Source: a virus. From it: DNA of 41,702 nucleotides. Location of the stretch: IMG/VR virus record IMGVR_UViG_3300034655_000019; one strand, 5' to 3'. Of the stretch, positions 1 to 41,702 are shown one piece after another (position 1 is the first letter of the stretch; the number at the start of each line of letters is the position of its first letter). The position numbers and the translations under genes were made by a program. A model generated the notes under the pieces. It had not been told where the DNA came from and ran no database searches. It worked only from the letters and a program-made list of their open reading frames with translations.

Positions 1-127
1 TGATGGGGCTAGACACCACCGGCATGCCCGGCGGCGGCGGCTTCAATCTTGGCTCGCTAGGTTCGCTCTACAGCAGCGCAACGAAATTGCCCTACGTGGG
101 CGATGCCATTAGTGGGGTGGGCAGCGC
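1..127. repeat. Terminal overlap, copy 1 (identical to 41576..41702)
   Basis: Base-by-base reading: tgatggggctagacaccaccggcatgcccggcggcggcggcttcaatc...ggtgggcagcgc at both ends. Confidence 0.95.
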
Positions 128-2423
128 GCTCGGGTTTGGTAGCTCTGCCGCTGCAGGCGGCCTGTACGCCAATGCGCTCACCGGCAGCGCAGCAGCAGGG
201 GGCTTATACGCTGGCGCGTCAACGGGTGCTGCCGTGGGTGGCCTTTACGGCAACGCTTTAACTGGCGCTGCAACTACCGCAGGCGGCGGCTTTATGAGCG
301 CTGCAAGCGCCGCCATGCCGTGGGTAGGTGGCGCGCTGCTGGTCGATAACGTGCTCGGGCTGGGCATTGTTGACGGCATTGTGGGCAGCATTAGCTCCCT
401 CTTCGGCGGCCGCAAAACCGCCCCTAAGTTCGAGTTAGCCACCGTAGGGCAGGACGTAGACCCCACCCGGCATGGTCTGTTTGAAAACTACGGGGAGGGT
501 GTGTACAGCCGTGGGGCGCTGGGTACCGTAGGGTTTTATGACCCTAACACTGCCCGCTTGGAAGAAACGTTCGACGGCTTCGATAACGCCAAGGCGTTTT
601 TAGACGGCATCACCGCGCTAGATAACGCCCTGGTGGGGGCAGCCGCCAACCTAGATAACGGCGCAGAGAAAACGCAGGCCATGGCCAGCGCCGCCCAGGC
701 TGTGCGCTTAAACGCAGGCGATGCCGCCGGGATCGCGAACCAGCTCGCCACGCGTACGCTTGCCGTGGTCGATGTGTTAGATGGTGATTTTTCCGCATCG
801 TTACGCGGACTAGGGTTGGATGCCGAGCAAATTACCGGGCGCGTGGTGCAGGCCGCTAACACCATGCAGCTCCTCGACAGCAATAGCGCGCGCCTTAATT
901 TGCAGTTCGACGCCAGCGCCGCCGGGGCCATGCGCGCCGCCGATGGCATGGCGCAACTCATGGGCGGTGCCGACAACCTGAACGCTTCGCTGGGTAGTTT
1001 CTACGACACGTTCTACACCGAAGAGGAAAAACTACAGCACCTTACGGAAGATCTTTCCAGCACGTTTGCCAGTATGGGGCGCGAACTGCCCACCACCCGC
1101 CAAGGCGTGCGGGATGTGGTCGAAAGCCTGGAGCTCATGGGCGCGGCTGGGCAAGAGCAGCTAGCCACCATTTTGCAAACCACCCCGGCGCTGCGTGAGT
1201 ACGTGGCCGCCATGGAGGCCCAGCAAACCGCCGCACAAACCGCCGCGCAGCTCAGCTACAGCAGCATTGTCGGCATCGACGGCGCGCTAGATGACTACAA
1301 CACCGCTGTTTCTCTCGCTGAACGGCTCGCCAGCCAGCGCCGCCAGCAGTTGCAAGAAGAGCAGCGGGCGTTTGATCAGCTAGGCCAGCTGCTGGATTCA
1401 CTGATGCTCTCCAATCAGTCGATTCTCGATCCGATGGAGCGCCTCAACGAAGCCCAGCGGCAGTATGCCCAGTTAGAGATCAGAGCGCAGGCAGGCGACA
1501 CCCAAGCCGCTGGCCAGCTGCAGGGCGCGTCTAGCGCGTATCTGGACGCAGCGGCGGCGGTGTACGGGCAATCGTCTAGCCAGTACGCGATGATTTTTAA
1601 CGAGGTTACCGCGTCGGTGCGCTCGCTGGAAGATCAATACGGCGATTCCCTCGCCACGCTGGGCAGTATCGAGAGCATCGATCGACAGCTTCTACGTGAG
1701 CAACAGCGTGCACGGGATACACTCACGCGCACGCTTAGCGAGCAGATTCAAGCCAATGCCGAGCTATCCAGCTTGGGCGGCCTACTGGAGCTGCTGCCCA
1801 ATCATCTCGCTAACGCGCTATCGGGCATTTTGGGCCAAGCCGTCACGCCCAATGGCAATACGTACATACCCGGCGGTTTCGATGCCGAGGGTGACGCGCT
1901 GCTAACCGGCGCACGCGGCGGCGTGGCCGACGCGTTCCGCGACGTGTTAGGCCGCGACCCTGACGATTCAGGGCTTGCTTACTACGAGAGTGAATACAGC
2001 TCGGGCCGTATGTCGCTCGATGAAATTCGCCGCCGCTTGAGGGACAGCGACGAGGCGAATAATCGCGTGCATGGCTCGCACGCCACCGGCCTTTGGAACG
2101 TCCCGTTCGATGGCTACATTGCTGAGCTGCACAAAGGCGAGCTTGTCGCGCCTGCCGACACTGCACAGCGGTTACGTGAGCTGCCCATGCCCAACCTGCC
2201 GCCCATGCCGTTTTCAAACATGGGCAGCAATCAAGCCACTGCCGCTCCTGCTATCAACCTGGAACCTCTACTACGCAAAATCGGCGCGTTAACCGCAGAG
2301 CTATCACAGCTTCGCGGGGAACGTGCCGATGATGCGGAGCGTGCAGCGCGTCAGCGTCAGGCTCAGTTACGCGAGCAAGAGCGCGCCCGTGGCCGTGCGA
2401 AAAAAGGAGTGAAAACGGTATGA
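1..2423 (+). CDS. Tail tape measure protein, C-terminal part (5' part is 39211..41702 across the circular junction)
   Basis: Open frame from the window start. Gly/Ala-rich hydrophobic segment (GGLYANALTG repeats), long Ala/Gln coiled-coil. DUF4214-like motif DAFRDVLGRDPDDSGLAYYESEY. C-terminal HKGELVAPA motif typical of lambda-family TMP ends. Confidence 0.9.
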   Translation, partial: MGLDTTGMPGGGGFNLGSLGSLYSSATKLPYVGDAISGVGSALGFGSSAAAGGLYANALTGSAAAGGLYAGASTGAAVGGLYGNALTGAATTAGGGFMSAASAAMPWVGGALLVDNVLGLGIVDGIVGSISSLFGGRKTAPKFELATVGQDVDPTRHGLFENYGEGVYSRGALGTVGFYDPNTARLEETFDGFDNAKAFLDGITALDNALVGAAANLDNGAEKTQAMASAAQAVRLNAGDAAGIANQLATRTLAVVDVLDGDFSASLRGLGLDAEQITGRVVQAANTMQLLDSNSARLNLQFDASAAGAMRAADGMAQLMGGADNLNASLGSFYDTFYTEEEKLQHLTEDLSSTFASMGRELPTTRQGVRDVVESLELMGAAGQEQLATILQTTPALREYVAAMEAQQTAAQTAAQLSYSSIVGIDGALDDYNTAVSLAERLASQRRQQLQEEQRAFDQLGQLLDSLMLSNQSILDPMERLNEAQRQYAQLEIRAQAGDTQAAGQLQGASSAYLDAAAAVYGQSSSQYAMIFNEVTASVRSLEDQYGDSLATLGSIESIDRQLLREQQRARDTLTRTLSEQIQANAELSSLGGLLELLPNHLANALSGILGQAVTPNGNTYIPGGFDAEGDALLTGARGGVADAFRDVLGRDPDDSGLAYYESEYSSGRMSLDEIRRRLRDSDEANNRVHGSHATGLWNVPFDGYIAELHKGELVAPADTAQRLRELPMPNLPPMPFSNMGSNQATAAPAINLEPLLRKIGALTAELSQLRGERADDAERAARQRQAQLREQERARGRAKKGVKTV

Positions 2424-9084: not shown

Positions 9085-10050
9085 ATGGATGCTGCAGCAG
9101 AGAACGCGCAGCCCCTCACGTGGGGGCGCGTGCCGTACGAACACCCAGGCAAGTGGTGGGGCACTGGTAACCGGTGTGGCCACGACCCCGCTAAAGGGGA
9201 ATTTGACCGCTATTGCCAACCGCTGAAAAAGGGCAGGCTACCCGCCACCCTGCAGGCGTTGGTAGACGGTGCAAAAGCCTACTACACCAGCCCCGGCTTA
9301 TTACCCACCCTGGCCAATCTGAATGGCAAGGCCAACGCCGATGGCAACCCCCGTTGTAACCGATCCGAGGCCCGCGCCGCTGAGTCGCTGGTGCTTTCTG
9401 CCATCATTCAGTTTACCGAGTTCGCCAGCCTGCGGGTGGGCACCCCGCTAGCCGATGGTGGTTTCAAGCACCGCAGCTGCGCTGAAATTGCCCGCGTGGC
9501 GGGCCTGCTGGCACCCGGCAGCACACCAGAAGCCCCCGAGCCTAGCCAACGCTTTTGGCGCGCCTTCCGGCGCTTGAAGCTGGCTGGCGCGTTCACCGTG
9601 CATTTGCAGCATGAAGTCAAAGCCGACGGCACGAAGCGGGCGCGGCCTGCTGTGAAGCTACTCAACCCGGATTTTCTGCTGGCGCTGGGGCGTGTGGGCT
9701 ACCAGAAGTTTAAGGAGTTCCGCGACTGGTGCAGCAACCGCATTAAGAAAGCCCGCCGTAAGCACCGCGAACAGCACCCCAAGGCGTACGACGCCGCCCA
9801 GGCCCGTAGCCGCCTAGCGATGGCAGGCAGCGGCCCCAGAGCGATGCAGAAGCAGCGCCGGGGTAAGAAGGATCTACCCGACGCCAACGATGAAAAAGAA
9901 CTGCAGCGCCGCTATAACCAAGAGGCAAACGCCTACTTTGCCCAGGTGGTGCGCGATAACCCCGGTGCCAGCCATGCCGAGGTGAACAAGCTGGTGCGCA
10001 TCAAGTACCCGCCGTATGAAGAGTGGCTAGACCGGCAGCGACGTTACTAG
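9085..10050 (+). CDS. repA: Plasmid replication initiator, IncFII RepA-like
   Basis: By-eye colinearity with R100/R1 RepA: SEARAAESLVLSAIIQF..RSCAEIARVAGLL..RFWRAFRRLKLAGAFTV, then a basic C-terminal tail. First ATG in the frame is at 9085. An ori-like region lies directly downstream. Confidence 0.6.
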   Translation: MDAAAENAQPLTWGRVPYEHPGKWWGTGNRCGHDPAKGEFDRYCQPLKKGRLPATLQALVDGAKAYYTSPGLLPTLANLNGKANADGNPRCNRSEARAAESLVLSAIIQFTEFASLRVGTPLADGGFKHRSCAEIARVAGLLAPGSTPEAPEPSQRFWRAFRRLKLAGAFTVHLQHEVKADGTKRARPAVKLLNPDFLLALGRVGYQKFKEFRDWCSNRIKKARRKHREQHPKAYDAAQARSRLAMAGSGPRAMQKQRRGKKDLPDANDEKELQRRYNQEANAYFAQVVRDNPGASHAEVNKLVRIKYPPYEEWLDRQRRY

Positions 10051-10999: not shown

Positions 11000-11272
11000 A
11001 TGCCCCGCCCCAAGCAAATGAACGCCGATGAAGTGGCCACGTGGTTAGCTGTGCTGCTAGATGCTGCCTTTGACCCCGCCCACGATGCCGTAGAACAGCA
11101 AGGCAAGGCCCAACTGCTGGCGCTGGCCAGCGACTTTACCCACTACCCCGACGATTACCCGGACGCCCGCCGGGCTGAATTGCTATTGCGGTGGGTGTCG
11201 ATCTGGCTACCCGGCGAATGGTGGCAGCGGTTGCAGGGCCGGGTAAGAAAGCGGCGTTCACGTGGCGCTTAG
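11000..11272 (+). CDS. Hypothetical protein
   Basis: ATG 11000 with AGGTG 7 nt upstream (the track starts at GTG 10991); 90 aa. Confidence 0.4.
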   Translation: MPRPKQMNADEVATWLAVLLDAAFDPAHDAVEQQGKAQLLALASDFTHYPDDYPDARRAELLLRWVSIWLPGEWWQRLQGRVRKRRSRGA

Positions 11273-11916
11273 TGTGCCTTTTCGCGCATAGCCCGCTTTA
11301 CCTTTTTCACAGTGGTTTCACCGCACCCGGCTAGCTCGCAAATGCGCGCCGTGGTGAACGGTTTGCCTTCACCATCGCGGGCGTTCAATAGCGCTTCAAT
11401 TCGCTGGTGTAGTGCCTTGTTGGGCCGCTTGCCCTGGTACTTGCCTTCCTTCTTTGCTTGCTCTATCCCCTGGCGCTGGCGCGTTCGCCGGTCGTCGTAG
11501 TCTTTGCGGGCTACCGCTGCGAGTACGTCTAGCATCATGGTATTCAGCGCATCGAGCATGCGGGCGGTAAAATCCTCGCCCTGGCTGGGCGTGGCCATGG
11601 CTGCGTAGCTAGTGGGAAGGTCCAGCGACACCACCCGTAACCCTAGCGCCTCAATCTGCCCCCGCAGGTGCCGCCACTCTGCCGCCCCCAGGCGGGAAAG
11701 ACGGTCTACCGATTCTATCAGCAGCACATCACCTTGCTTGGCATCTTCCAGAAGCCTCCTGAGTTCTGGGCGCTGGCTGCTAGCGCCGCTCACATTCTCG
11801 ATATACCAGCTCACTACCTCACGGCGATGTTCAGCGGCGAAGTGTTCTAGCGTGCTGCGTGCCCGCTGGGCGTTCTGTTCTGCCGTGCTGGCGCGTAGGT
11901 ATCCCCTGACGTACAT
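11269..11916 (-). CDS. Serine recombinase (resolvase/invertase family), probable multimer resolvase
   Basis: N-terminal YLRASTAEQ catalytic-Ser motif, DRLSR motif, C-terminal HTH FTTARICELAGCGETTVKKV. Confidence 0.85.
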   Translation of the reverse strand: MYVRGYLRASTAEQNAQRARSTLEHFAAEHRREVVSWYIENVSGASSQRPELRRLLEDAKQGDVLLIESVDRLSRLGAAEWRHLRGQIEALGLRVVSLDLPTSYAAMATPSQGEDFTARMLDALNTMMLDVLAAVARKDYDDRRTRQRQGIEQAKKEGKYQGKRPNKALHQRIEALLNARDGEGKPFTTARICELAGCGETTVKKVKRAMREKAH

Positions 11917-11938
11917 GCGTTCCCCCTGGCGGTGTTTT

Positions 11939-11983
11939 GGGCGTTTTGGGTGGGCAGTTTAGCAGGTGGGCGTTTTGGGTGGG
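11939..11983. repeat. Two perfect 16-bp direct repeats GGGCGTTTTGGGTGGG (11939-11954, 11968-11983) upstream of the resolvase
   Basis: Read directly; a third degenerate copy GGTGTTTTGGG is at 11931-11941. Confidence 0.75.
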
Positions 11984-11996
11984 GGTTTGGCTAAAA

Positions 11997-12014
11997 CGCC
12001 TGATTGATCAGGCG
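11997..12014. repeat. Inverted repeat CGCCTGAT-TG-ATCAGGCG (candidate recombinase site)
   Basis: 8-bp perfect arms, 2-bp centre. Confidence 0.6.
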
Positions 12015-12052
12015 GGCCACCAGTGGGCGCTTAGGGAGTACCTAAAGTGACG

Positions 12053-12090
12053 TGTAGCTAAAAGCTATACGTGTATAGCTTTTAGCTACA
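12053..12090. promoter_or_regulatory. 38-bp near-perfect palindrome (18-bp arms), candidate TA operator
   Basis: TGTAGCTAAAAGCTATAC-GT-GTATAGCTTTTAGCTACA, ends 5 bp before an extended -10. Confidence 0.6.
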
Positions 12091-12095
12091 TGGCG

Positions 12096-12104
12096 TGTTA
12101 TAAT
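12096..12104 (+). promoter_or_regulatory. Extended -10 promoter element TGtTATAAT
   Basis: Perfect TATAAT (12099-12104) preceded by TGt. Confidence 0.55.
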
Positions 12105-12301
12105 CTTATCGTCGTCGCATTCCGTGGCGACTCGAAGGCGAGCTGAACGCGACCTTTCGAACATAAAAAAGGAGAGCAACCCATGCAACCAACTCAACAA
12201 GGCGCTACCGAGCCCATACGATAATCGCCTTGCAGGCAGCAACAAGCTGCTTAGCAAGGCTAAGGAGAGAAACACCCTTAAACAGCGATAGGACATACAT
12301 C

Positions 12302-12607
12302 ATGAAAAGCACAGCTGCTGAGGCAGTGGCTAAGCCACTGGCCCTCAATATGCGTGTTGACCCTAAAAAACGCGCCTTGATCGATAGAGCCGTAGCGGAG
12401 CTGGGGGGAGACCGAACCAGCTTTATAGTTGAAGCCGCCTGTAGACGCGCCGAAGATGTTTTGATGGATCGACGTTACTACATGCTGGATGAAGACGACT
12501 ACGCGTTCTTCGAGCAGGCCATTAACAAGCCTATATCGGAGAGACCGTGTCTACAGAAACTTTTACGAAAAGTCCCTTCATGGGAGTCAGTGCACCCGAA
12601 CGCCTAA
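12302..12607 (+). CDS. DUF1778 RHH antitoxin (TacA/AtaR/KacA type)
   Basis: LNMRVDPKKRALIDRAVAELGGDRTSFIVEAACRRAEDVLMDRR closely parallels TacA; overlaps the toxin gene. Confidence 0.85.
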   Translation: MKSTAAEAVAKPLALNMRVDPKKRALIDRAVAELGGDRTSFIVEAACRRAEDVLMDRRYYMLDEDDYAFFEQAINKPISERPCLQKLLRKVPSWESVHPNA

Positions 12608-13062
12608 CGCAAGAGCATGACTTGTCAGCTTTCGACTGCGATAAGTCTTCACTCAATGGCTTTTTAAAAGAGCGAGCGTTAGAAAATACTGCAACCAAAG
12701 CGACAATTACCTACGTGGTGTGCCGCCCAGGAACAAAGCAAGTGGTCGGCTATTTTAGCGTTTGTCCTGGCGGCGTTGATCGAAACGAATTGCCGGGCAA
12801 ATATAAGAAAAACATGCCGAGCATGGTGCCTGTCATCATTCTAGCGAGGCTTGCAATAGATAATTCTATTAAGGGCAATGGAGTTGGTCAGGATTTATTG
12901 CAGGCCGCGTTACTGATGGCTATTGAAAGCTCTTACCACATGGGTGCAGTGGGTATGATGGTTAATGCTGCCGATGATGCGATAGATTTTTATCTAAAGC
13001 ATGACTTCGACGCTTTCCCAAAAGATCCATCGAAGCTAATCACCTCGCTGAAGCTAGAGTGA
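12580..13062 (+). CDS. GNAT acetyltransferase toxin (TacT/AtaT/KacT type)
   Basis: MGVSAPERLTQEHDLSAFDC..., NMPSMVPVIILARLAIDNSIKGNGVGQDLL, colinear with Salmonella TacT. Start at ATG 12580 rather than GTG 12547. Confidence 0.85.
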   Translation: MGVSAPERLTQEHDLSAFDCDKSSLNGFLKERALENTATKATITYVVCRPGTKQVVGYFSVCPGGVDRNELPGKYKKNMPSMVPVIILARLAIDNSIKGNGVGQDLLQAALLMAIESSYHMGAVGMMVNAADDAIDFYLKHDFDAFPKDPSKLITSLKLE

Positions 13063-13075
13063 GATGTGTTTGCCA

Positions 13076-13098
13076 CCCCGCCACCCGGCGGGGTTTTT
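13076..13098 (+). terminator. Rho-independent terminator after the TA operon
   Basis: CCCCGCC-accc-GGCGGGG then TTTTT. Confidence 0.8.
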
Positions 13099-13163
13099 AT
13101 TTATATACCGTTATTTTCCTTGCCCGCTGCTTAGCCAGGTCATTAACCTGATTGATTGCGACG

Positions 13164-13189
13164 AAAAAGCCCGGCGCATAGGCCGGGCT
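13164..13189 (-). terminator. Rho-independent terminator ending the minus-strand par operon
   Basis: AGCCCGGC-gcatag-GCCGGGCT; TTTTT follows on the minus strand. Confidence 0.75.
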
Positions 13190-13196
13190 TGTTAGA

Positions 13197-13433
13197 TTAG
13201 GTGTACGTCTCAATGCTAAATTCCTTGCCCTCTAGGTTGCCTGCTTTCCATGCTTCCGCTTGGCAGGTGCCGAGCTTGTAAGGCATTGCGTCTAATTCGC
13301 CCTTTGGCTTTCCCGCTAAACGCCAGGCTAAGGTTGAGCGCATACCGTTCATGTGTTCGACACTGCGCGTGTGGGACTTCATAAACTCGTCTGCAATACG
13401 ATTGGCTTTTTGCCGATGCTCGATGGTGATCAT
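13197..13433 (-). CDS. Hypothetical protein
   Basis: 78 aa, followed by a terminator. Only a weak resemblance to the RMF-type motif (AG..G....PY......AW..G). Confidence 0.45.
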   Translation of the reverse strand: MITIEHRQKANRIADEFMKSHTRSVEHMNGMRSTLAWRLAGKPKGELDAMPYKLGTCQAEAWKAGNLEGKEFSIETYT

Positions 13434-13443
13434 ATTTTAGCCC

Positions 13444-13587
13444 TCAGTGAATACGCACGATGCGCTCTAACGCCCGCCTGCTAGCGGCCGGGCACTGGTA
13501 TAGGTAGGCGCACAGCAGGTGCAGCGGCAGCGTATGCAGCTGGTTTAACGGTGTGCGGGCAATCGTGGTATATTCGTTTGCTGACAT
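13444..13587 (-). CDS. Small hypothetical protein (47 aa; the track extends to 13644)
   Basis: ATG at 13587 (MSANEYTTIART...); the upstream extension looks non-coding. Confidence 0.3.
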   Translation of the reverse strand: MSANEYTTIARTPLNQLHTLPLHLLCAYLYQCPAASRRALERIVRIH

Positions 13588-13672
13588 GATAGCTAATCCC
13601 CATTGGTATTGTGTCGTTGCGTAACGCCCGCCCGGTCTAGCCACCGGGTGGGCGTTTTAGTGTGGCTCACTT

Positions 13673-14032
13673 TCAGAAGCTCACCAGCTCAAAGCCGTAG
13701 CGGGCTTTGAGGTCTTCGTGGTGCTGGTCCCACCACTCCTCATCTTTCCATGCCGCCCGGCCTTCGTAGCGGGCGGTAATGTCGTCTAGCATCGCGCCGA
13801 AGGCGCTTAACGCGTCTCGATAGCTGTTGTACGGCGCTTCCTGCAGGGTGAATCCCACTAGGGCGGGGCCGGTGTCGCAAGCGACCGCGACGGCATAGCC
13901 GCCTTCGCATGGGCCTATCGAGGTGCTTTCTAGCACGCTCTTATAGTGGTGCGACATAAGCTCGGCAATGGCGCACAGTGCCAGCTCATAGCTAGGTATC
14001 AGGCGGTCAAACTGCTGGATCTCATTGTTCAT
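13673..14032 (-). CDS. Hypothetical protein
   Basis: 119 aa, starts 3 nt after the parG-like stop; acidic/Trp-rich C-terminus. Confidence 0.5.
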   Translation of the reverse strand: MNNEIQQFDRLIPSYELALCAIAELMSHHYKSVLESTSIGPCEGGYAVAVACDTGPALVGFTLQEAPYNSYRDALSAFGAMLDDITARYEGRAAWKDEEWWDQHHEDLKARYGFELVSF

Positions 14033-14034
14033 GG

Positions 14035-14277
14035 CTAGCCCTTCCCTTTTTCCCGCTTGTACGCTGCCCAGGCTTCCTTGAGTACGTCCACCATTTGCAT
14101 GTCATGCTCTACGGCAAACGCTTTAAACTCCCGGCGCATTTCAGGATCAACGCGGAAATTCAGCGGCACCTTTTCGCCGCTTTCCGGTTTGCTGGTGTTG
14201 TTGCCCACTACCGGGCCGGGGGTGGCTGCCGTGGGCGGTGCGCCTTTGCTGCTGGGTTTCATGCTTGGCTTTGCCAT
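14035..14277 (-). CDS. Ribbon-helix-helix centromere-binding/regulatory protein (ParG/omega-like)
   Basis: Disordered basic N-terminus, then RHH pattern KVPLNFRVDPEMRREFKAFAVEHDMQMVDVLKEAWAAY. Immediately downstream of parA. Confidence 0.7.
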   Translation of the reverse strand: MAKPSMKPSSKGAPPTAATPGPVVGNNTSKPESGEKVPLNFRVDPEMRREFKAFAVEHDMQMVDVLKEAWAAYKREKGKG

Positions 14278-14298
14278 GGTGTTAGCTCCTGCGTTTTA

Positions 14299-14322
14299 GC
14301 GTGCTAGCGTTATATAACGCTT
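14299..14322. repeat. ATAACGC heptad locus A (GCGTGCTAGCGTTATATAACGC), between parA and the parG-like gene
   Basis: Contains the 14-bp perfect palindrome GCGTTATATAACGC (14307-14320) and the rc of ATAACGCTAGCACGC. Confidence 0.8.
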
Positions 14323-14965
14323 AATTAACAAGCGATTCAAAGCGGTTGATGATGTTTTGTATCAGTTCATCCGCTTGGGCCTTCGGGCCTTTGAATGGGG
14401 TTTCAACAATCGACAGCCCTTTATCTTGGGCTAATACAAACGCGTCGCGCTCGGGTACTTGGCCATCGAGTACAAAATAGGGCGTATGGGCGAGGTAGGC
14501 GCGGGCATCCTGCAGCTGCGTTTTACTCTTGCCCACTTTGCTCAGCGCGATGGCGATGCGCTCAATGGGTACGCCCTCTTGGCCGGTGAGTGTGTTGGCC
14601 AGCCTTACGGTGGGTTCAAGGTCGTCAACGCTTAACGCGGTGGGTAGAACGACGAGATCCGCAAGCCGGGCCACTTCGGCGGTGGCTTTGGTGGCATGGG
14701 GCGCGCCGTCGAAAATCATTAGGTCGTAGGTATCGGCTACCTTTAGAGCGCTGGCCACCGTGCCGAACGTCTCTACGGCCACCTCTGGCGTTACGCCGCT
14801 TTTGAGGCGGCGTTGTAACCAGGTGAAAGAGGTGGATTGGTTAATATCGAGATCCGCTATTTTTACATTCCAGCCCGCAGCGGCGTAGGTGGTGCCCAGC
14901 GCCCGGCTTAGGGTGCTTTTGCTGACGCCGCCCTTTTGGCTAACGAAGGCTATCTTGTGTCCCAT
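14321..14965 (-). CDS. parA: ParA partition ATPase (small type Ib, deviant Walker A)
   Basis: KIAFVSQKGGVSKSTL deviant Walker A; 214 aa without an N-terminal HTH; AAGGGGA RBS. Confidence 0.9.
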   Translation of the reverse strand: MGHKIAFVSQKGGVSKSTLSRALGTTYAAAGWNVKIADLDINQSTSFTWLQRRLKSGVTPEVAVETFGTVASALKVADTYDLMIFDGAPHATKATAEVARLADLVVLPTALSVDDLEPTVRLANTLTGQEGVPIERIAIALSKVGKSKTQLQDARAYLAHTPYFVLDGQVPERDAFVLAQDKGLSIVETPFKGPKAQADELIQNIINRFESLVN

Positions 14966-35031: not shown

Positions 35032-35217
35032 ATGCCCAATGCAGGAGGCCGCTACGAAATCCGTGGCGGCAAGCGTGTGCTCGTGCACAACACGCAGCCC
35101 ACGCCCGCCAAGCCCGTCACGGCGGCAACGAAGCAACCCGCCGCACCGGTGAAAACCGATGCAGCACCCAAGCCCGCTAAGGCAGCGGCCAAGCAAGAGG
35201 TAGATACCAATGAGTAA
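35032..35217 (+). CDS. Small Pro/Ala/Lys-rich hypothetical protein
   Basis: GGAGGA RBS before ATG 35032; MPNAGGRYEIRGGKRVLVHN then a low-complexity tail. Confidence 0.45.
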   Translation: MPNAGGRYEIRGGKRVLVHNTQPTPAKPVTAATKQPAAPVKTDAAPKPAKAAAKQEVDTNE

Positions 35218-36157
35218 GCAATGGCGCCGCCGCCTAGCCGTGGTGGCCGTAGAAACCCAGTACGGCGTAGCGCCTGACCCCGCCACCGCCACCATTCTAG
35301 AAGTGGTCATGCTGGATGCAGGCAACCCCTACGCAGGTAACACCGTCGAGCGTGAGCGCATGCGCTACGGCTTCGGCAACTTTGAGCAGATCAACACCGG
35401 CCCCAGCGTTGAGCGCCAAATTCGCGTGCCGTTCTCCGGTTCCGGCACCGCTGGCGAGCCGCCTGCGTATTCCCCACTGCTGCGTGCCTGTGGGCTCTCC
35501 GAAACCATCGACAACACCGTCGATAGCGAAAGCGTCACCTACCAGCCCGTTTCTCAGGGCATGGATAGCGTGACGATCTGGTGGTATGAAGACGGCCAAG
35601 TGCAGGAAATTCGCGGCGCGCGTGGCACCTACGAAATCGGCGCGGATGCCCAAAGCCTACCGTACTGGCAGTTCAACCTAACCGGCCTTTACAGCCGCCC
35701 CGAAAACGCCCCCACTGTGCAGGGCGTAGAAAGCACGATTGCCGGAGAAGTGCCGATCAACAAACAGAACAGCACGTTCACCATGTTCGGCTACCCGGCG
35801 CGCCTGCAAGCGTTTAGCCAAAACGCAGGCAACCAAGTGGAATACCGCAATCTCGTCGGCTACGAAGGCGTACACATCACCGACCGCCGCGTAACGGGCA
35901 ACATCACCATCGAAGCCCCGGCCCTGGCAGACTTCAACGCCTTCGAGAAAGTTGAAAGTCACCAGCTGGTGACCCTGGGTGAAGTCACACTGACCCACGG
36001 CACAGCTCCCGGCAACATCATCAAGGCCGAAGGGCTGCAGGCGCAGGCGGCGAACATCACGCCCAGCGATAACCAAGGCATCATGCACTACGGCATGGAA
36101 ATCCGTTACCTGCCCACCGGCAGCAACGACGACGACGTGAAATACGTCTTCACCTAA
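35210..36157 (+). CDS. Major tail (tube) protein
   Basis: 315 aa, immediately upstream of the chaperone pair and TMP; followed by an attenuator hairpin. Confidence 0.7.
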   Translation: MSKQWRRRLAVVAVETQYGVAPDPATATILEVVMLDAGNPYAGNTVERERMRYGFGNFEQINTGPSVERQIRVPFSGSGTAGEPPAYSPLLRACGLSETIDNTVDSESVTYQPVSQGMDSVTIWWYEDGQVQEIRGARGTYEIGADAQSLPYWQFNLTGLYSRPENAPTVQGVESTIAGEVPINKQNSTFTMFGYPARLQAFSQNAGNQVEYRNLVGYEGVHITDRRVTGNITIEAPALADFNAFEKVESHQLVTLGEVTLTHGTAPGNIIKAEGLQAQAANITPSDNQGIMHYGMEIRYLPTGSNDDDVKYVFT

Positions 36158-36180: not shown

Positions 36181-36210
36181 CACGCCGTCCAATGGGCGGC
36201 GTGTTTGTTC
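36181..36210 (+). terminator. Terminator/attenuator after the tail tube gene
   Basis: CACGCCG-tccaatggg-CGGCGTG then TTTGTTC. Confidence 0.55.
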
Positions 36211-36238: not shown

Positions 36239-36580
36239 ATGTCATTAGTGCTGAAAAAGATCCCCACCACCACCGTGGATGTACCTGTTCAAGTGCCGGG
36301 CGAAGAGAAGCCCGCCACCATCCAAGCCACGTGGAAGCTGCACGACTGGGACACCTACCGCGCTACGGTCGAAGCGCAGCAGAAGGGCGAGAAAAACGAC
36401 GAAGAGCTGCTAGATGATTTGGAAAACGTGAGCGGCATCAAGGACGAAAACGGCAACGACATGCCGTTCAACAAAGAGCTGGTCGAACAGCTCATGCAGG
36501 CCACCTACATTCGCCGCCCGCTGATTCTCAGCTGGTTCGCTGCCCAAGAAGGCCGCAGCCAGGCCGCTGCAAAAAACTAA
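36239..36580 (+). CDS. Tail assembly chaperone (gpG equivalent)
   Basis: 113 aa acidic protein ending at the slippery site; position before the TMP. Confidence 0.75.
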   Translation: MSLVLKKIPTTTVDVPVQVPGEEKPATIQATWKLHDWDTYRATVEAQQKGEKNDEELLDDLENVSGIKDENGNDMPFNKELVEQLMQATYIRRPLILSWFAAQEGRSQAAAKN

Positions 36581-37089: not shown

Positions 37090-37275
37090 GAGTTTAAATC
37101 TACTTTGACTGAGGCTAGTATGAATGCGCTCCTATCAAATAACGAGGCTCGCCACGCGGGCCATTGAAACACTGGGCCCTGGCTGCCCAGGCATAGCCCA
37201 TGGATGAAAGAAAATTAGCAAAGTTGCCCTTGCTCCTTTATGGTTTTGATGGGAACCATTACAAGGGGAAGGGGC

Positions 37276-38658
37276 ATGGATTGGTCGCTGTATGAGGATC
37301 CTCAGACAGGTCGTTTTAAGCCTAAAAAACTGTCGATTACAAAAAGCCCAATAAAAATCAAAGAAGTGACAGACCTTTACAACATGCGGCAGGACCTTAA
37401 AGGGCTGCCGATGGATGAGGCAAAGCTTGTATTCAAGCAGTTTTTCAATGACGAATATGCCCATGAGCTTGAAGTAGAAGAGCTAGAGGTCGCTTTCAAC
37501 CGGGCAACAAAAGCGACATTGGGCAAGGCGTTCTGTTTCAAGGGGCATTTTTCTGCCATCGAAGAGCTATTGGATATGCACCCAGGGATAGAGTCGATTC
37601 CTCTACCTTTATCAGATGCTCAGACGCACCAAGCGGTGAGGTTTAATCTCATCAAAAGATGGACCCCCACTGACCAAGAAGAGTGGGAGTCATTGCTATT
37701 GGGTGGGTATAAAGCGACAGAACTCAAAGCGATGATGATAGAAAACGGCCTAGAGCCGAAGGGTAGAAAAGCCGACTTGGCCCGTGACTTAGCCGCCTTT
37801 GCGATGTGCAATCCTGAAAAAATGCCTCCGTCTTATGAGTTTTTGCCAGGTGATGAACTTAAGCCTGCCTTACAGGAGGCGATCACCAATATGGTGCGTG
37901 GTTTAAAAGATGAGATCGAAAACCACCCCTACTATTACCAATACATCGCTTGGCAGGAGTTGCTGATGACTTGGCCAAGCTATGATTGGCCCTGGCTTCC
38001 TGAGCTCATAAAATCACATGGTGGAGCCCCTGCGGCGGCGGCAGTGAGCGCTCGCCTCATAGGCCAAAAAGTGTCGTCTAGTGAGCCGTTCGAACCTGAC
38101 GATTGGAAAGGGTCGGCCACTTCCACGGCGCGCCTAGAAATAGCGGTGCCTGAACAAAAGGTTGAGCCGCCCAGCGTCACTTCAACGCCTCAACCAGCAA
38201 AGCCATCTCCTTCGCCAGCGCCCTCAAAGAGCGAGAGCACCTGGGCCGCCAATGACTTTGACGAGCCGATAGAGGTGCTTTTTAAGTATCAAGGCGAGCG
38301 GGATGCAGCCCCTAAAGAAAGGCATGTTCAAATTGAGCGAGTCTCTACGAAAGGCGGCCGCGTATTCCTGAAAGGCATGTGTTTGAAAAGCCAGGGCATG
38401 AAGATGTTTATGGTTGACCGGATTAAGGGGGATATTGTTAGCCCTATTACAGGGGAGCTGGTTAGGCCGAGTGATCATACTCGAGTTGAAATATTGAGAG
38501 AGGCGCTGCAAGCGCTGGCAGTCGCACACCCCGTTGTTACGCCTGTCATCGATGCCCCCGACAATCTGCCACCCGAAGCTCCTGCGCCCAATAAGCCACC
38601 TGGAAAGCTGGGCATTATGCGGCGTTTCTTCAATAAGCTGGGGCTGAAAAATGAATAG
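37276..38658 (+). CDS. SAP-motif + WYL-like domain protein with C-terminal amphipathic helix (moron gene 1)
   Basis: AAGGGGA RBS. SAP-like KATELKAMMIENGLEPKGRKADLARDL; PSA-rich linker. WYL-like ERHVQIERVSTKGGRVFLKGMCLKSQGMKMFMVDRIKGDIVSPITGEL. Terminal KLGIMRRFFNKLGLK. Confidence 0.6.
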   Translation: MDWSLYEDPQTGRFKPKKLSITKSPIKIKEVTDLYNMRQDLKGLPMDEAKLVFKQFFNDEYAHELEVEELEVAFNRATKATLGKAFCFKGHFSAIEELLDMHPGIESIPLPLSDAQTHQAVRFNLIKRWTPTDQEEWESLLLGGYKATELKAMMIENGLEPKGRKADLARDLAAFAMCNPEKMPPSYEFLPGDELKPALQEAITNMVRGLKDEIENHPYYYQYIAWQELLMTWPSYDWPWLPELIKSHGGAPAAAAVSARLIGQKVSSSEPFEPDDWKGSATSTARLEIAVPEQKVEPPSVTSTPQPAKPSPSPAPSKSESTWAANDFDEPIEVLFKYQGERDAAPKERHVQIERVSTKGGRVFLKGMCLKSQGMKMFMVDRIKGDIVSPITGELVRPSDHTRVEILREALQALAVAHPVVTPVIDAPDNLPPEAPAPNKPPGKLGIMRRFFNKLGLKNE

Positions 38659-39142
38659 CATGCGATGCTTCGCTTTGTTTCTGGGCTTCCCTGTCTTTGC
38701 TATGGCAGATTGCGGTAATCCTGAGTGTGTAGCGGTAGAGTATTTCAAGGCTCATATAAGCCAAGATGTAGAGACACTTTACACACTAACGGTAGAGTCA
38801 AAGCGAGGTGATTTAGAAGAATTTGCGGACTCGTACTACGAGATGCACTACACACCTTCCGTATTTAAAGAGTACTGGGAGGAAAATGCTCATATTGAAG
38901 TTGCTGGTGTTGAGACAGGTGACAAAGTTTCAAGGGTCAATATTGAGGGGCGCTATCCTGACTGGATTAGCGTTGCCACCGACCGGACGATGATGGGGAA
39001 AGACCTTATTTCGGATAGCGATTGGCTTTCTTTTGTTGACGCGCTGGAAAATATGGATGTTGAAATGATTACTCAGTATGACGATGTTTTTCTTATCCAT
39101 GACGAGGGACGCTGGCGCGTCTTAAGGCCTGTTTTCCATTAA
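38651..39142 (+). CDS. Secreted NTF2/DUF4878-like protein (moron gene 2)
   Basis: Signal peptide MNSMRCFALFLGFPVFAMA, Cys right after (ADCGNPECVAVEYFKAHISQD); 8-nt overlap with gene 1. Confidence 0.55.
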   Translation: MNSMRCFALFLGFPVFAMADCGNPECVAVEYFKAHISQDVETLYTLTVESKRGDLEEFADSYYEMHYTPSVFKEYWEENAHIEVAGVETGDKVSRVNIEGRYPDWISVATDRTMMGKDLISDSDWLSFVDALENMDVEMITQYDDVFLIHDEGRWRVLRPVFH

Positions 39143-39163
39143 CTGATCAACTTGATTAAATGT

Positions 39164-39186
39164 GCCCGCCACGTGCGGGCTTTTTT
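39164..39186 (+). terminator. Rho-independent terminator closing the moron cassette
   Basis: GCCCGC-cacgt-GCGGGC + TTTTTT. Confidence 0.8.
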
Positions 39187-39210
39187 GTGCCCGCAATTTG
39201 AGGTGGCCCC

Positions 39211-41702
39211 ATGGCTCAAACCTATAAAACTGGCTTAATCATCACCGGGGATGCCAGTGGTGGCATTCGGGCCATTAAGGCTACCGAGGACGAACTCGGC
39301 AAGCTCAACCAAGGCTTTGACCGCGGCTCACGTCGTAGCCGTCAGTTTAACCAAGACGTTAACGCCACTAGCCAAGGTTTGGCCGTGCTGCGCCGCGCCG
39401 CTGCGCCTATTGCCGGTGCTATTGCGGGCATGTTTGCGGCTAACTCGCTGCAAAACCAGATCAACTGGGCCGACCAGCTGCAGAAAACCAACCTGCGCAT
39501 TGGAGCCAGCACAGAAGCGCTGAGCCAGTACAACTACGTCGCCAGCCTTTCCGGCGTCGAGTTCAACCAGCTGACGACGGCATGGCAGCGCCAAACCCGG
39601 CGTATTGCCGAAGCCGCTGCAGGCACAGGGGTAGCCGTCGCGGCGCTGGATCGCCTCAATCTTAGCGCCCAAGAGCTGAACCAACTGGCCCCAGAAGACC
39701 AGTTCGAGCGCATCGCGGAAGCCATGCAGGGCGTGGAAAACAGCAGTGAGCGCGTGCGCCTTGCCCAGCAGCTTTGGGATAGCGAGGGCGTAAAACTGGT
39801 GCAGATCGTCAACAGTGGCACCGATGCCATTGCTGCCATGCGCGCGGAGGCTGACGCGCTGGGCCTAACGATCAGCCAAGACACCGCCAACGCCATGGCA
39901 AGCTATAACGATGAAGTCGATCGCCTAAAGTTTGCCGCGCAGGGTGTCAGCCAAACGCTGCTTTCTGAGCTAGTGCCTGCGATGACGGCAGGGCTACAAA
40001 ACGTCAATGCGTTTATCCAAGAGGCGGGCGGCGCGGCCAGCATTTTGAATGAAGTGAAAGACGTAGCCGCCATCACCGCCGCTGTGCTGGCGGGCCGTTA
40101 CGCCGCGGCCATGGTGACGGCTAGCCAAGCCACGTTACAGAAGCTAGCCGCTGACCGTGCGGCTGCAGCGCAGTCTGCTCTCAGCATGGAGGCAGAAGCG
40201 GGGCGCGCCGCCATGCAGGCCCGCACAACCGCAGCAGAACTGAACACGGCGGCGGTACGTGCCACCATTGCGGCTCAAGAGGCGGCGCAGGAGCGCGCCG
40301 CAGCAGCGCAAGACGTGCAGCGGTTGCAGCGCCTGCAAGCACAGCTAGCCGCAGAGAAAACCCTGGCCGCCCAGCGCTTAGCCGAACAATCCAATGCCGC
40401 AGGCCGTATGCAGGTGCAGGCGCGCATCAACCAGTTACATACCGCAGAACTGACGGCCACTAACCAGCTAACCGCGGCAACCACCCGGCTCAACCAGGCA
40501 GAAGCCGCCGCCGTATCAACCAAGCGGCTAGCCACTACTGCCAGTATCGAGAAAACCAGAGCGGATACTGCCGCCACTGCCGCCGTGGGCCGCTACACTG
40601 CTGCAACGCATGCGACCACCAATGCCAATACGCTGCTGGCCGCTTCTGGGCGCGCTGCATCGAGTGCGCTGGCGCTGGTGGGTGGGCCGCTGGGTCTTCT
40701 AGTCGGTGCAGGTGGCTTGTTGTATGCCTTCCGTGAGGAGATTGGGCTGGTTCGTCAAGCGGTCGAGCCGACGACACGGCGTATCGACAACCTGACCGAT
40801 GCCATCAACCGTAACAGCGTGGCAGCGGTTGAAGCGGGTATCGTTAACCTGTCGGCTGAGTATTTCACGCTAGGGCAGCGTGCAGCGGCGACAACGGCTC
40901 AGATTGAGCGGCTAAACGCTGCTCAAGAGAATGACCGCCAAGGCGCTCAGGCCCGCTTGCAAAACAACATGCGTTTGCGCGACTTGCGCGAAGAACTAGC
41001 GCAGATTGTCGCCGAGCAGGAAGCGGCGGGCGAAGCGTCTACACGCCTGCGTGAAACGCTGGAAGGGCTAGGCGAGACAGCGGTTCCTGCTACCAGCTCA
41101 TTAACGGATTTAGGCGACACCACCCGCGAAGCCGCCAAACAAACCACCACGCTCGCCAACAGCTACGAAAACCTGCTCGACCGCATCCAGCCCAACCGTC
41201 GCGCCGCACGGCAGTACGCGCAGGATGTGGGCACGCTGAACCTAGCCCTGGCCACGGGCCGCATGACCACCGTGCAGTACATGCAGGCCATGGGCATGCT
41301 GCAGGAGTCGTTTCAGGCGGCGCAGCGGGAAACAGAAAACACCGCTAATGCCTCAGAAGACGCCAGCCAGCGCATCGCCAACAGCTTCCTCAGCTGGGAA
41401 ACCGTCGCGGATAACACGCTGCGCCGTATTGATGATTCCGGCCAAAGCTTGTGGCTTGGCTTGATCGATGGTTCTGAAAGTGCGCTCGATACTGTGAAGC
41501 GGGGCTTCCAGCAAACGCTGGCAGAAATCGCCCACATGCTCACCACGCAAAAACTGACCTTCCAAGTCGCGGGCATGATGGGGCTAGACACCACCGGCAT
41601 GCCCGGCGGCGGCGGCTTCAATCTTGGCTCGCTAGGTTCGCTCTACAGCAGCGCAACGAAATTGCCCTACGTGGGCGATGCCATTAGTGGGGTGGGCAGC
41701 GC
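39211..41702 (+). CDS. Tail tape measure protein, N-terminal part (continues at 1..2423); absent from the supplied ORF track because no stop precedes the window end
   Basis: ATG 39211 after GAGGTGG. Own translation: MAQTYKTGLIITGDASGGIRAIKATEDELGKLNQ...LSAQELNQLAPEDQFERIAEAMQGVENSSERVRLAQQLWDSEGVKLV (lambda-family TMP N-terminal motif). Open to the window end. Confidence 0.9.
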   Translation, partial: MAQTYKTGLIITGDASGGIRAIKATEDELGKLNQGFDRGSRRSRQFNQDVNATSQGLAVLRRAAAPIAGAIAGMFAANSLQNQINWADQLQKTNLRIGASTEALSQYNYVASLSGVEFNQLTTAWQRQTRRIAEAAAGTGVAVAALDRLNLSAQELNQLAPEDQFERIAEAMQGVENSSERVRLAQQLWDSEGVKLVQIVNSGTDAIAAMRAEADALGLTISQDTANAMASYNDEVDRLKFAAQGVSQTLLSELVPAMTAGLQNVNAFIQEAGGAASILNEVKDVAAITAAVLAGRYAAAMVTASQATLQKLAADRAAAAQSALSMEAEAGRAAMQARTTAAELNTAAVRATIAAQEAAQERAAAAQDVQRLQRLQAQLAAEKTLAAQRLAEQSNAAGRMQVQARINQLHTAELTATNQLTAATTRLNQAEAAAVSTKRLATTASIEKTRADTAATAAVGRYTAATHATTNANTLLAASGRAASSALALVGGPLGLLVGAGGLLYAFREEIGLVRQAVEPTTRRIDNLTDAINRNSVAAVEAGIVNLSAEYFTLGQRAAATTAQIERLNAAQENDRQGAQARLQNNMRLRDLREELAQIVAEQEAAGEASTRLRETLEGLGETAVPATSSLTDLGDTTREAAKQTTTLANSYENLLDRIQPNRRAARQYAQDVGTLNLALATGRMTTVQYMQAMGMLQESFQAAQRETENTANASEDASQRIANSFLSWETVADNTLRRIDDSGQSLWLGLIDGSESALDTVKRGFQQTLAEIAHMLTTQKLTFQVAGMMGLDTTGMPGGGGFNLGSLGSLYSSATKLPYVGDAISGVGS
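41576..41702. repeat. Terminal overlap, copy 2 (identical to 1..127)
   Basis: Same 127 nt as the window start; lies inside the tape-measure reading frame. Confidence 0.95.

Follow-up and report, generated by a model that had tools for sequence, protein, structure and literature searches.

The stretch of DNA analysed here, IMG/VR virus record IMGVR_UViG_3300034655_000019 (41,702 nucleotides (nt) in total; hereafter, the window), carries an insert of two genes at positions 37090-39190, between the genes of the G/GT tail chaperone and of the tape-measure protein of a temperate, lambda-like Halomonas phage. The insert is a moron island that comprises two separable modules, the first formed by a conserved 70-nt element together with gene 1, and the second, by gene 2. 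Gene 1 founds an undescribed protein family, in which a new N-terminal module with a SAP motif is combined with a WYL domain and a membrane anchor, and the most plausible reading of gene 2 is that it fills, in this phage, an exchangeable envelope-protein slot similar to that of gp15 in phage HK97. As for the function, we tentatively propose, with slightly less than even confidence, that the island is expressed in the lysogen and has an anti-phage or exclusion role, gene 1 dealing with nucleic acid at the inner membrane and gene 2 being a gp15-like envelope factor.

The composition of the island sets it apart from the remaining genome, as the first-pass annotation of the window had noted when it described the DNA as visibly richer in AT. 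The GC content of the insert is 0.492, compared to the genome mean of 0.584 (standard deviation 0.027), and is the lowest for any 2.1-kb segment of the genome. The same tendency is observed for the GC content of third codon positions (GC3), which is 0.53 in gene 1 and 0.46 in gene 2, against 0.66-0.75 in the neighbouring structural genes. When gene 1 is compared to its counterparts in contigs of other samples, the ratio of nonsynonymous to synonymous substitution rates (dN/dS) is 0.15-0.25; for gene 2, it is 0-0.26, a value that comes from very few changes (0-1 amino-acid changes). Thus, the two genes placed here in the first pass are both real and evolve under purifying selection, with the said limitation for gene 2. 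The phage itself is completely represented: the ends of the window (1-127 and 41576-41702) are an exact direct repeat of 127 nt, produced by assembly overlap, hence the genome is a closed circle of 41,575 bp. As it encodes a CI-like repressor with helix-turn-helix (HTH) and S24 domains, an integrase, ParA, and a resolvase, the phage is temperate.

With the tube protein as the query, species-representative genomes yielded 19 related Halomonadaceae prophages, one of which has gene 1. In the Zobellella prophage (L029; here and below, L and a number denote a related locus), the site is empty, with only 20-40 nt between the chaperone stop codon and the start of the tape-measure gene, so that these genes are indeed adjacent in a relative lacking the insert. 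In other relatives, the gap is filled with 0.4-6.7 kb of varied cargo, and all related loci diverge immediately 3' of the chaperone stop codon. For instance, the tube and DUF1799 of L010 are both 95% identical to those of the window, and the tube, G, and T proteins are 90-95% identical, yet the islands are different. On the right side, the island is bordered by a terminator with a strong 6-bp stem composed solely of GC pairs (39164-39180 in the scan); it is situated about 25 nt 5' of the tape-measure start, the hairpin beginning 47 nt upstream of it. The GCCCGC-loop-GCGGGC stem and the invariant tail TTTTTTGTGC are retained in 14 related loci with different cargo, approximately 45 nt before the tape-measure start, the loop being variable and the stem constant (examples are positions 39164-39190 of the window, 13193 in L017, 15301 in L024, and 16383 in L027). 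Thus, the strong terminator noticed in the first pass is confirmed by the scan, but it is a feature of the phage backbone and not of the cassette.

In this phage lineage, the chaperone/tape-measure junction is a recombination hotspot that extends from the chaperone stop codon to the conserved terminator. Two of the properties by which morons were recognized in HK97 and HK022, presence or absence at the same site among close relatives and a base composition differing from that of the surroundings, are seen here, and both composition and patchy distribution characterize the insert as horizontally acquired accessory DNA. Exchange has also affected the module itself. The window and L042 have 95% nt identity at 37142-39326, a block that takes in the left end of the module, genes 1 and 2, the terminator, and the initial 115 nt of the tape-measure gene; past 39326, the tape-measure proteins are about 41% identical (N-terminal 300 amino acids (aa)). 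Within gene 1, the segment at approximately 37476-37700 (aa ~68-142) has 57-62% nt identity to L042, compared to 97-100% in the rest of gene 1 and in the entire gene 2. In the protein alignment this segment is a patch resembling another subclade, pointing to recombination inside the N-terminal module.

Among the products of these islands are YafO, Fic, PIN, and HEPN proteins, as well as antirepressor-like proteins with Bro-N, pRha, and P22_AR_N domains; in L039, an antirepressor-like gene precedes the gene 1 module. Two further islands encode an exonuclease-BRCT fusion protein (Table 1), which takes the slot held by gene 1 in L007 and is followed by a partner of the same secreted type. The junction is a hotspot of toxin and defence genes in Halomonadaceae prophages.

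Since gene 1 is codirectional with the tail operon and positioned within it, and in every Halomonas-clade locus is situated upstream of the tape-measure gene with only a small envelope gene between them, one could expect it to encode a virion, tail-assembly, or DNA-ejection component produced from the late operon. The distribution of the gene largely refutes this explanation, which we regard as very improbable. Gene 1 is absent from 18 of the 19 related prophages with the same tube and chaperone genes, deviates in both GC and GC3, is separated from the tape-measure gene by the terminator, and does not match any PHROG structural family. Moreover, its distant relatives are located between the integrase gene and the convergent S24 repressor gene, at the edge of P2-like prophages (Pseudoalteromonas and IMG/VR contigs). 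This excludes a role in tail assembly and demonstrates that temperate phages of unrelated kinds, lambda-like and P2-like, use the family. The slot between the integrase and the repressor is typical for lysogen-expressed genes. The same gap contains additionally a DUF4760 gene in L033 and an M78 peptidase gene in L009.

The family is small, gene 1 having 62 relatives in a set of 1.84 billion representative proteins. Pfam covers only its WYL and SAP parts, and PHROGs, NCBIfam, the specific PADLOC models, PDB, and BFVD do not contain it. No match in 50,697 deposited phage genomes was obtained with gene 1 (tblastn) or with the whole region (megablast); one distant relative, P0025, compared to the same genomes, produced just a short WYL stretch in a Yersinia phage. 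Single distant relatives used as queries (P0012, P0025, P0021, and P0019) retrieved nothing from IMG/VR.

The start of gene 1 is fixed by the fact that nine of nine homologues begin with MDW/LSLYED and by the conserved Shine-Dalgarno sequence GGGGAAGGGG before the ATG. The protein was modelled with AlphaFold2 (AF2) from a 36-sequence alignment of relatives, at a mean predicted local distance difference test score (pLDDT) of 84.5. This model replaced an earlier one, which was based on ten close homologues, had a mean pLDDT of 48, and in Foldseek yielded only non-significant SAP matches (probability 0.75-0.87). The N-terminal module is well ordered (pLDDT >90) and has no family of its own in Pfam, where only the embedded SAP part is matched, or in PHROGs and NCBIfam, and no fold match in PDB or BFVD. 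Its conserved residues are M1, D2, the basic strand K17-K29, D/E30, D33, E64/E66/E68, P218, and W226. An enzyme, for example of the PD-(D/E)xK type, was considered and was not adopted: there is a conserved acidic cluster, but neither fold nor profile searches produced a match.

The SAP-like motif reported in the first pass holds at the level of the family. For the window protein alone, the Pfam SAP model (PF02037) scores 13.8 bits, below the cut-off of 23.9, but nine of 36 relatives match it with E-values up to 0.01 (the best being 1.2e-11), and the family profile matches the SAP domains of Ku70 (1.5e-6), Hcc-1 (5e-5), MKL1, and Tho1 (both ~3e-3; Tho1, 3.6e-3). Thus, by hidden Markov model searches with the family profile and by the helix-extended loop-helix fold in the predicted structure, gene 1 belongs among the SAP proteins. 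The following Pro/Ser/Ala-rich linker, also noted previously, is disordered in the model and differs among homologues in both sequence and length.

The evidence for the WYL domain, for which the first pass had only a sequence pattern, comes from three sources. The Pfam model (PF13280) scores 25.1 bits at residues 334-384, the gathering score being 21.8, and is also matched by 20 of 36 relatives; the family profile matches PafBC at 5.6e-7; and the modelled barrel (pLDDT >92) retrieves, with Foldseek probability 1.0, BrxR (7t8l, 7qfz), CapW (7tb5, 9c5g), PafBC (9fnd), and DriD (7tzv). On the BrxR entries 7t8l_B and 7qfz, the root-mean-square deviation is 2.2 A over 65 residues. The beta-barrel of gene 1 is a WYL domain. 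Basic residues flank the triplet equivalent to WYL, R362-VFL-K366, although in the wider family the flanking Arg and Lys are not conserved. The similarity to BrxR and CapW is restricted to this part, as the Foldseek alignments span 65-88 residues. No HTH family was matched in Pfam or NCBIfam, and no WCX domain follows: beyond the barrel, there are just helix 404-416, a Pro-rich segment, and a short tail. In PADLOC-DB v2, the only model matched by gene 1 is a generic CRISPR-associated WYL model (9.4e-7).

The C-terminal tail had been described as an amphipathic helix like those targeting MinD and FtsA to the membrane. The tail is indeed present, and its pattern K.G[IF].RR.L..LG is conserved in all Halomonas-clade members; AF2 places a low-confidence helix at 448-454. 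The tail KKPGFISRLLAKLGG of gene 1 relatives resembles, by eye only, that of E. coli MinD, KKGFLKRLFGG. The hydrophobic moment of the tail, assessed on 15-mers and 11-mers, does not exceed that of shuffled sequences. The main argument for a membrane-targeting function is that homologues have transmembrane (TM) anchors at the same position: among 50 more remote relatives possessing the N-terminal module, approximately 39 have one to three C-terminal TM segments instead of the tail, and some of them consist of the N-terminal module and the TM anchor without WYL. In addition, in P0074 and P0017 (P and a number denote a protein), a 3-TM N-terminus is followed in the same polypeptide by a WYL domain of the gene 1 clade, and this 3-TM part is 47% identical to the product of a separate gene 3' of gene 1 in L006. 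Thus, in every architectural variant of the family there is a membrane anchor, or else the C-terminal tail in its place.

Two side observations concern the same architectures. Just upstream of the L010 fusion gene, there is a 58-aa remnant of the 2-TM partner type (9828-10004). Six proteins matched by the profile in the WYL part only (P0062, P0065, P0066, P0067, P0070, and P0071) have N-terminal TM segments and a common ending ...G[IV].VIDE..F..L. By eye, this ending looks like BRCT, in which case these proteins would form another membrane-attached WYL architecture.

The downstream gene behaves differently, and the description of the insert as a two-gene cassette, in the sense of a pair, fails. 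Gene 2 is nearly identical in L039 and L042 (99.4-99.6% nt identity) and occurs only beside those gene 1 relatives that are closest to the window (93-97% identity). No homologue was found beyond its own 90% cluster, and tblastn gave no match in any other related locus. The overlap of 8 nt with gene 1, correctly recorded in the first pass, is also found in three other contigs. Downstream of gene 1 relatives there are five unrelated types of envelope-protein partners, including gene 2, or none, as in the fusion form (L010). Moreover, the 2-TM and secreted partner types also occur directly before the tape-measure gene without gene 1 (L017, L020, L022, L023, L024, and L027), and the family-profile search revealed no hidden gene 1 relative in these six islands. 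Thus, genes 1 and 2 are separable modules and not an obligate pair. At most occupied sites, the last gene before the tape measure encodes a membrane or secreted protein; no correlation between the partner type and the tape-measure type was seen.

By inspection, gene 2 begins with a signal-peptide-like segment, in agreement with the first pass, and has no hydrophobic segment beyond it. The mature protein contains cysteine, is predicted to be soluble, and is probably periplasmic. The proposed start of the DUF4878/NTF2-like type was not retained, as DUF4878 is not listed by Pfam at E-values up to 1. All Pfam matches are below the threshold, and the sole hint of the NTF2 clan is Lumazine_bd_2, aligned over the full length at 13.6 bits (cut-off 22.1; E = 0.12). 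A sequence search of PDB gave nothing.

We turn to the DNA upstream of gene 1. The promoter TTTAAA-17-TAGTAT of the first pass is present at the very left of the island, but it agrees with the consensus at eight of 12 positions, is not called by the promoter scan, and is outside the conserved module. Indeed, the homology of the window to L039 and L042 starts only at about 37140. The junction segment before this point is partially similar to the left end of the island in L002 and L038 only, and it is missing in loci where gene 1 directly follows the chaperone gene. The repeats at the left end of the module are kept in loci where another moron precedes gene 1, and in L002, L003, L007, L008, and L021 a GCCCGC-N-GCGGGC hairpin lacking the T-run is found at this end. 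The possibility that the same GCCCGC hairpin marks every module junction was rejected, as only two places show it, the right border of the island and, in the gene 1 module, the left end. The 70-nt element adjacent to gene 1 is nearly invariant in ten loci, including L001, L006, and L036, which have an unrelated left flank, and from this conservation we infer that it is the promoter of gene 1. In the leader (37225-37276), CTCCTTT can pair with the Shine-Dalgarno region around the inner ATGGTT/AACCAT hairpin (-27 kcal/mol, z = -3.6). Sequestering of the Shine-Dalgarno sequence by this hairpin was not accepted: the ten leaders provide no covariation support (78.6% of cells pair, compared to 77.0% in shuffled alignments), and the RNAalifold consensus is -0.5 kcal/mol.

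A conserved gene with a WYL domain, followed by variable cargo, could also be a ligand-sensing regulator, which would bind DNA via SAP and single-stranded DNA or a nucleotide via WYL and switch envelope or prophage genes, with the membrane sequestering and releasing it. In its fold, the WYL domain is most similar to BrxR, CapW, and PafBC; an operator could reside in the conserved element upstream; the gene 1 stop codon and the gene 2 start codon overlap; and a conserved gene before variable cargo resembles the position of BrxR and CapW before diverse defence systems (PMC11662680). We nevertheless consider a regulator unlikely. HTH and WCX are both missing, and Foldseek aligns the WYL barrel alone; most relatives have permanent TM anchors, and some have the N-terminal module and the anchor without WYL. 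The family also occurs without any downstream gene to be regulated, both in L010 and in P2-like prophages, in which the family member is followed by the convergent repressor gene, and, conversely, the partner types occur without gene 1.

Separability of the modules would also suit two unrelated lysogenic-conversion genes with no anti-phage role, gene 1 being, for example, a DNA-membrane tether for a plasmid-form prophage, and gene 2, a periplasmic protein altering host physiology. The combination of a membrane anchor and a DNA-binding motif fits a tether, the phage has ParA and resolvase in addition to integrase, and one relative is a 45.8-kb plasmid. On the other hand, relatives carrying gene 1 occur as chromosomal integrants as well (L002, in Halomonas sp. 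MS1; L021, in Vreelandella venusta NBRC 102221; and the P2-like prophages), most relatives that have this backbone lack gene 1, and the slot is common to toxin, nuclease, and candidate defence genes. We hold this explanation to be rather doubtful.

Exclusion or defence in the lysogen, the guess of the first pass, remains the best inference from the sequences, and it is supported by the defence-type neighbourhood (the PDC-S48-like exonuclease-BRCT protein, PIN, HEPN, YafO, Fic, and antirepressor-like genes). According to this proposal, both genes would be transcribed in the lysogen from the element 5' of gene 1, with transcription ending at the backbone terminator. The gene 1 protein would be located on the cytoplasmic face of the inner membrane, where it would bind or sense nucleic acid, double-stranded DNA by SAP and single-stranded DNA or RNA by WYL, and would interfere with the DNA of a superinfecting phage at or just after entry. 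The outcome would be exclusion or a membrane-directed abortive response. Gene 2 would be an independent exclusion factor of the HK97 gp15 type on the periplasmic side, which may cooperate with gene 1 and would not be required by it.

Several observations weigh against this proposal. The cassette precedes two types of tape measure, and hence there is no sign of co-adaptation with its own one. No nuclease or other effector domain was recognized in gene 1; no specific defence family of PADLOC-DB v2 matches it, and nothing credible was found there for gene 2. The membrane tail has a low AF2 confidence, and its hydrophobic moment for 11-mers, 0.54-0.69, is reached by 11-49% of shuffles. The promoter-like hexamers of the 70-nt element match just eight of 12 consensus positions. 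Finally, the SAP and WYL domains are also compatible with a regulator.

A bolder version of the exclusion proposal, which we put forward as speculative and on balance improbable, is that gene 1 represents a new class of inner-membrane "DNA-entry checkpoint". Here, a prophage-encoded, membrane-tethered reader composed of SAP and WYL would, at the site of injection, capture or sense the nucleic acid of the incoming phage without a nuclease, the exchangeable periplasmic or membrane partners would set which phages are excluded, and the family would be used by lambda-like and P2-like phages of marine Gammaproteobacteria.

A moron island at the chaperone/tape-measure junction, probably serving in prophage competition, is known already. 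Prophage morons are a main source of newly found anti-phage mechanisms, and defence at genome injection has only recently been shown to involve membrane-bound proteins in contact with both the incoming DNA and the tape measure. The gene 1 family joins two predicted nucleic-acid-binding elements to a membrane anchor and is found in lysogeny-linked slots of two unrelated phage types. If gene 1 indeed excludes phages, this would place a WYL domain in a membrane-located effector or sensor and not in a soluble transcription factor. The island is a well-delimited candidate for experiment, not an established system, and the hotspot, being well bounded by the chaperone stop codon and the terminator, can be mined for further cargo in Halomonadaceae prophages.

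Table 1. Features of the island, its surroundings, and related loci. Positions refer to the window unless a locus is named.
Feature	Position	Strand	Evidence and remarks
Tail tube gene	35210-36157	+	Pfam, PHROG
Chaperone G gene	36239-36580	+	Pfam Phage_TAC_4, PHROG tail families
T part (DUF1799), -1 frameshift extension of G	frame open from 36502, stop 37089	+	Pfam DUF1799, PHROG
Slippery heptamer A AAA AAC	36571-36577	+	canonical -1 site, immediately 5' of the chaperone G stop codon
Junction segment with candidate promoter	37090-37140	+	TTTAAA 37094-37099, TAGTAT 37117-37122; outside the conserved gene 1 module
Left end of the gene 1 module, two hairpin-forming repeats	37141-37206	+	degenerate GGCTCGC-CACG-CGGGCC, and CTGGGCC..GGCTGCCCAG
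Conserved 70-nt upstream element	37207-37275	+	TTAGCA 37215-37220, 18-nt spacer, TATGGT 37239-37244, leader with GGGGAAGGGG
Gene 1	37276-38658	+	460 aa; N-terminal module, SAP motif, linker, WYL domain, membrane anchor/tail
N-terminal module, aa 1-265	37276-38070	+	well-ordered (AF2)
SAP-like helix-extended loop-helix, aa 144-180	37705-37815	+	inside the N-terminal module; AF2 helices 147-156 and 165-178
Disordered Pro/Ser/Ala-rich linker, aa 266-325	38071-38250	+	pLDDT <50 for residues 268-323
WYL domain, beta-barrel, aa 330-400, followed by helix aa 404-416	38263-38475	+	Pfam, Foldseek, profile
Basic-hydrophobic C-terminal tail, putative membrane-targeting helix, aa 444-458	38605-38649	+	KLGIMRRFFNKLGLK
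Gene 2	38651-39142	+	163 aa; overlaps gene 1 by 8 nt
Predicted Sec signal peptide of gene 2, aa 1-19	38651-38707	+	MRCFALFLGFPVFAMA|D, ending AMA|D, by inspection only
Intrinsic terminator	39164-39186	+	GCCCGC-CACGT-GCGGGC and TTTTTTG; scan; right border of the island
Tape-measure gene	39211..41702, then 128..2423 across the circular junction	+	1,595 aa; PHROG tape-measure families, frame continuity
Gene 1 partner, different secreted protein	L001 (H. qaidamensis, plasmid CP080628), L007
Gene 1 partner, 2-TM protein with C-terminal domain	L002, L003, L008, L021
Gene 1 partner, 3-TM protein	L006, L036
Gene 1 partner, 101-aa secreted protein	L038
3-TM-WYL fusion, 226 aa, Vreelandella venusta prophages	L010 10001-10681; also L011, L012		directly before the tape-measure gene, no partner gene
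Distant gene 1 family members, 500-537 aa	L009 10001-11539; L033 3011-4624; L035 1296-2798		multi-TM C-termini
Island genes (Fic, YafO, HEPN preceded by a 267-aa gene, PIN, antirepressor-like)	L002 7994-8434; L003 6609-7073, 7427-8585; L022 13387-13947; L007 2767-3198
DEDDh (RNase T-like) exonuclease-BRCT fusion	L024 13815-14801; L027 14995-15888		PADLOC candidate PDC-S48, 6e-25

As the T frame is open and the slippery site stands next to the stop codon of G, the chaperone genes left of the island are an ordinary G/GT frameshift pair. Directly 3' of the heptamer, there is a GC-rich inverted repeat, ACCGGCGCTGGCCGGT. Between the tail tube gene and chaperone G, there is a strong terminator-like hairpin (36181-36203; ten pairs, eight of them GC, and a weak T tract), which may attenuate transcription inside the late operon. 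The genome has a second AT-rich stretch at about 11350-14500 (GC ~0.52), overlapping the resolvase gene (11269-11916, minus strand) and small open reading frames; it may be another accessory region.

In CapW, BrxR, and DriD, the WYL domain binds single-stranded DNA, which serves as a signal of damage or infection (PMC11662680). The WYL barrel of gene 1 superposes on the WYL domains of BrxR, CapW, PafBC, and DriD, and the basic flanks in R362-VFL-K366 are similar to the RWHVR motif of CapW (PMC11662680). Unlike BrxR, CapW, and PafBC, gene 1 has, in place of the winged HTH and WCX, the SAP module, the long disordered linker, and the membrane anchor or tail. Besides, it is found at prophage moron sites and not, like BrxR and CapW, upstream of a defence operon.

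P22 SieA and T4 Imm are membrane-located anti-phage systems that act at genome entry. SNIPE, a membrane-bound defence protein, acts on the DNA while it is being injected and is associated with tape-measure proteins (PMC13190303). The logic proposed for gene 1 is the same as for SNIPE, SieA, and Imm, a constitutively membrane-associated nucleic-acid binder at the point of DNA entry, and this is an analogy, not homology. Unlike SNIPE, gene 1 has no recognizable nuclease, and both its membrane location and its action on the incoming DNA are predicted.

The closest precedent for the island as a whole is gene 15 of HK97, the first element to be called a moron. It is situated between the genes of the tail chaperone and of the tape-measure protein, and its product is an inner-membrane protein of superinfection exclusion (PMC3594210). 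Thus, the location, which was not recognized as a described one in the first pass, is the same site. In HK97 there is one small protein, gp15, which belongs to the YebO family and is located in the inner membrane, whereas here we have two genes with no sequence relation to it: gene 1, encoding a putative cytoplasmic multidomain protein, and gene 2, the product of which is predicted to be soluble and exported. Gene 2 matches no family in Pfam or PHROGs, including any of the gp15/YebO type that these contain, and has only the position in common with gp15. The likeness is in the organization: as with HK97 gene 15, the island occupies the same site, has a deviant composition, encodes a predicted envelope-located product, and is patchily present in relatives. 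It also has a terminator, common here to the whole site, and, in the 70-nt element, putative expression signals of its own (weak sigma-70-like hexamers).

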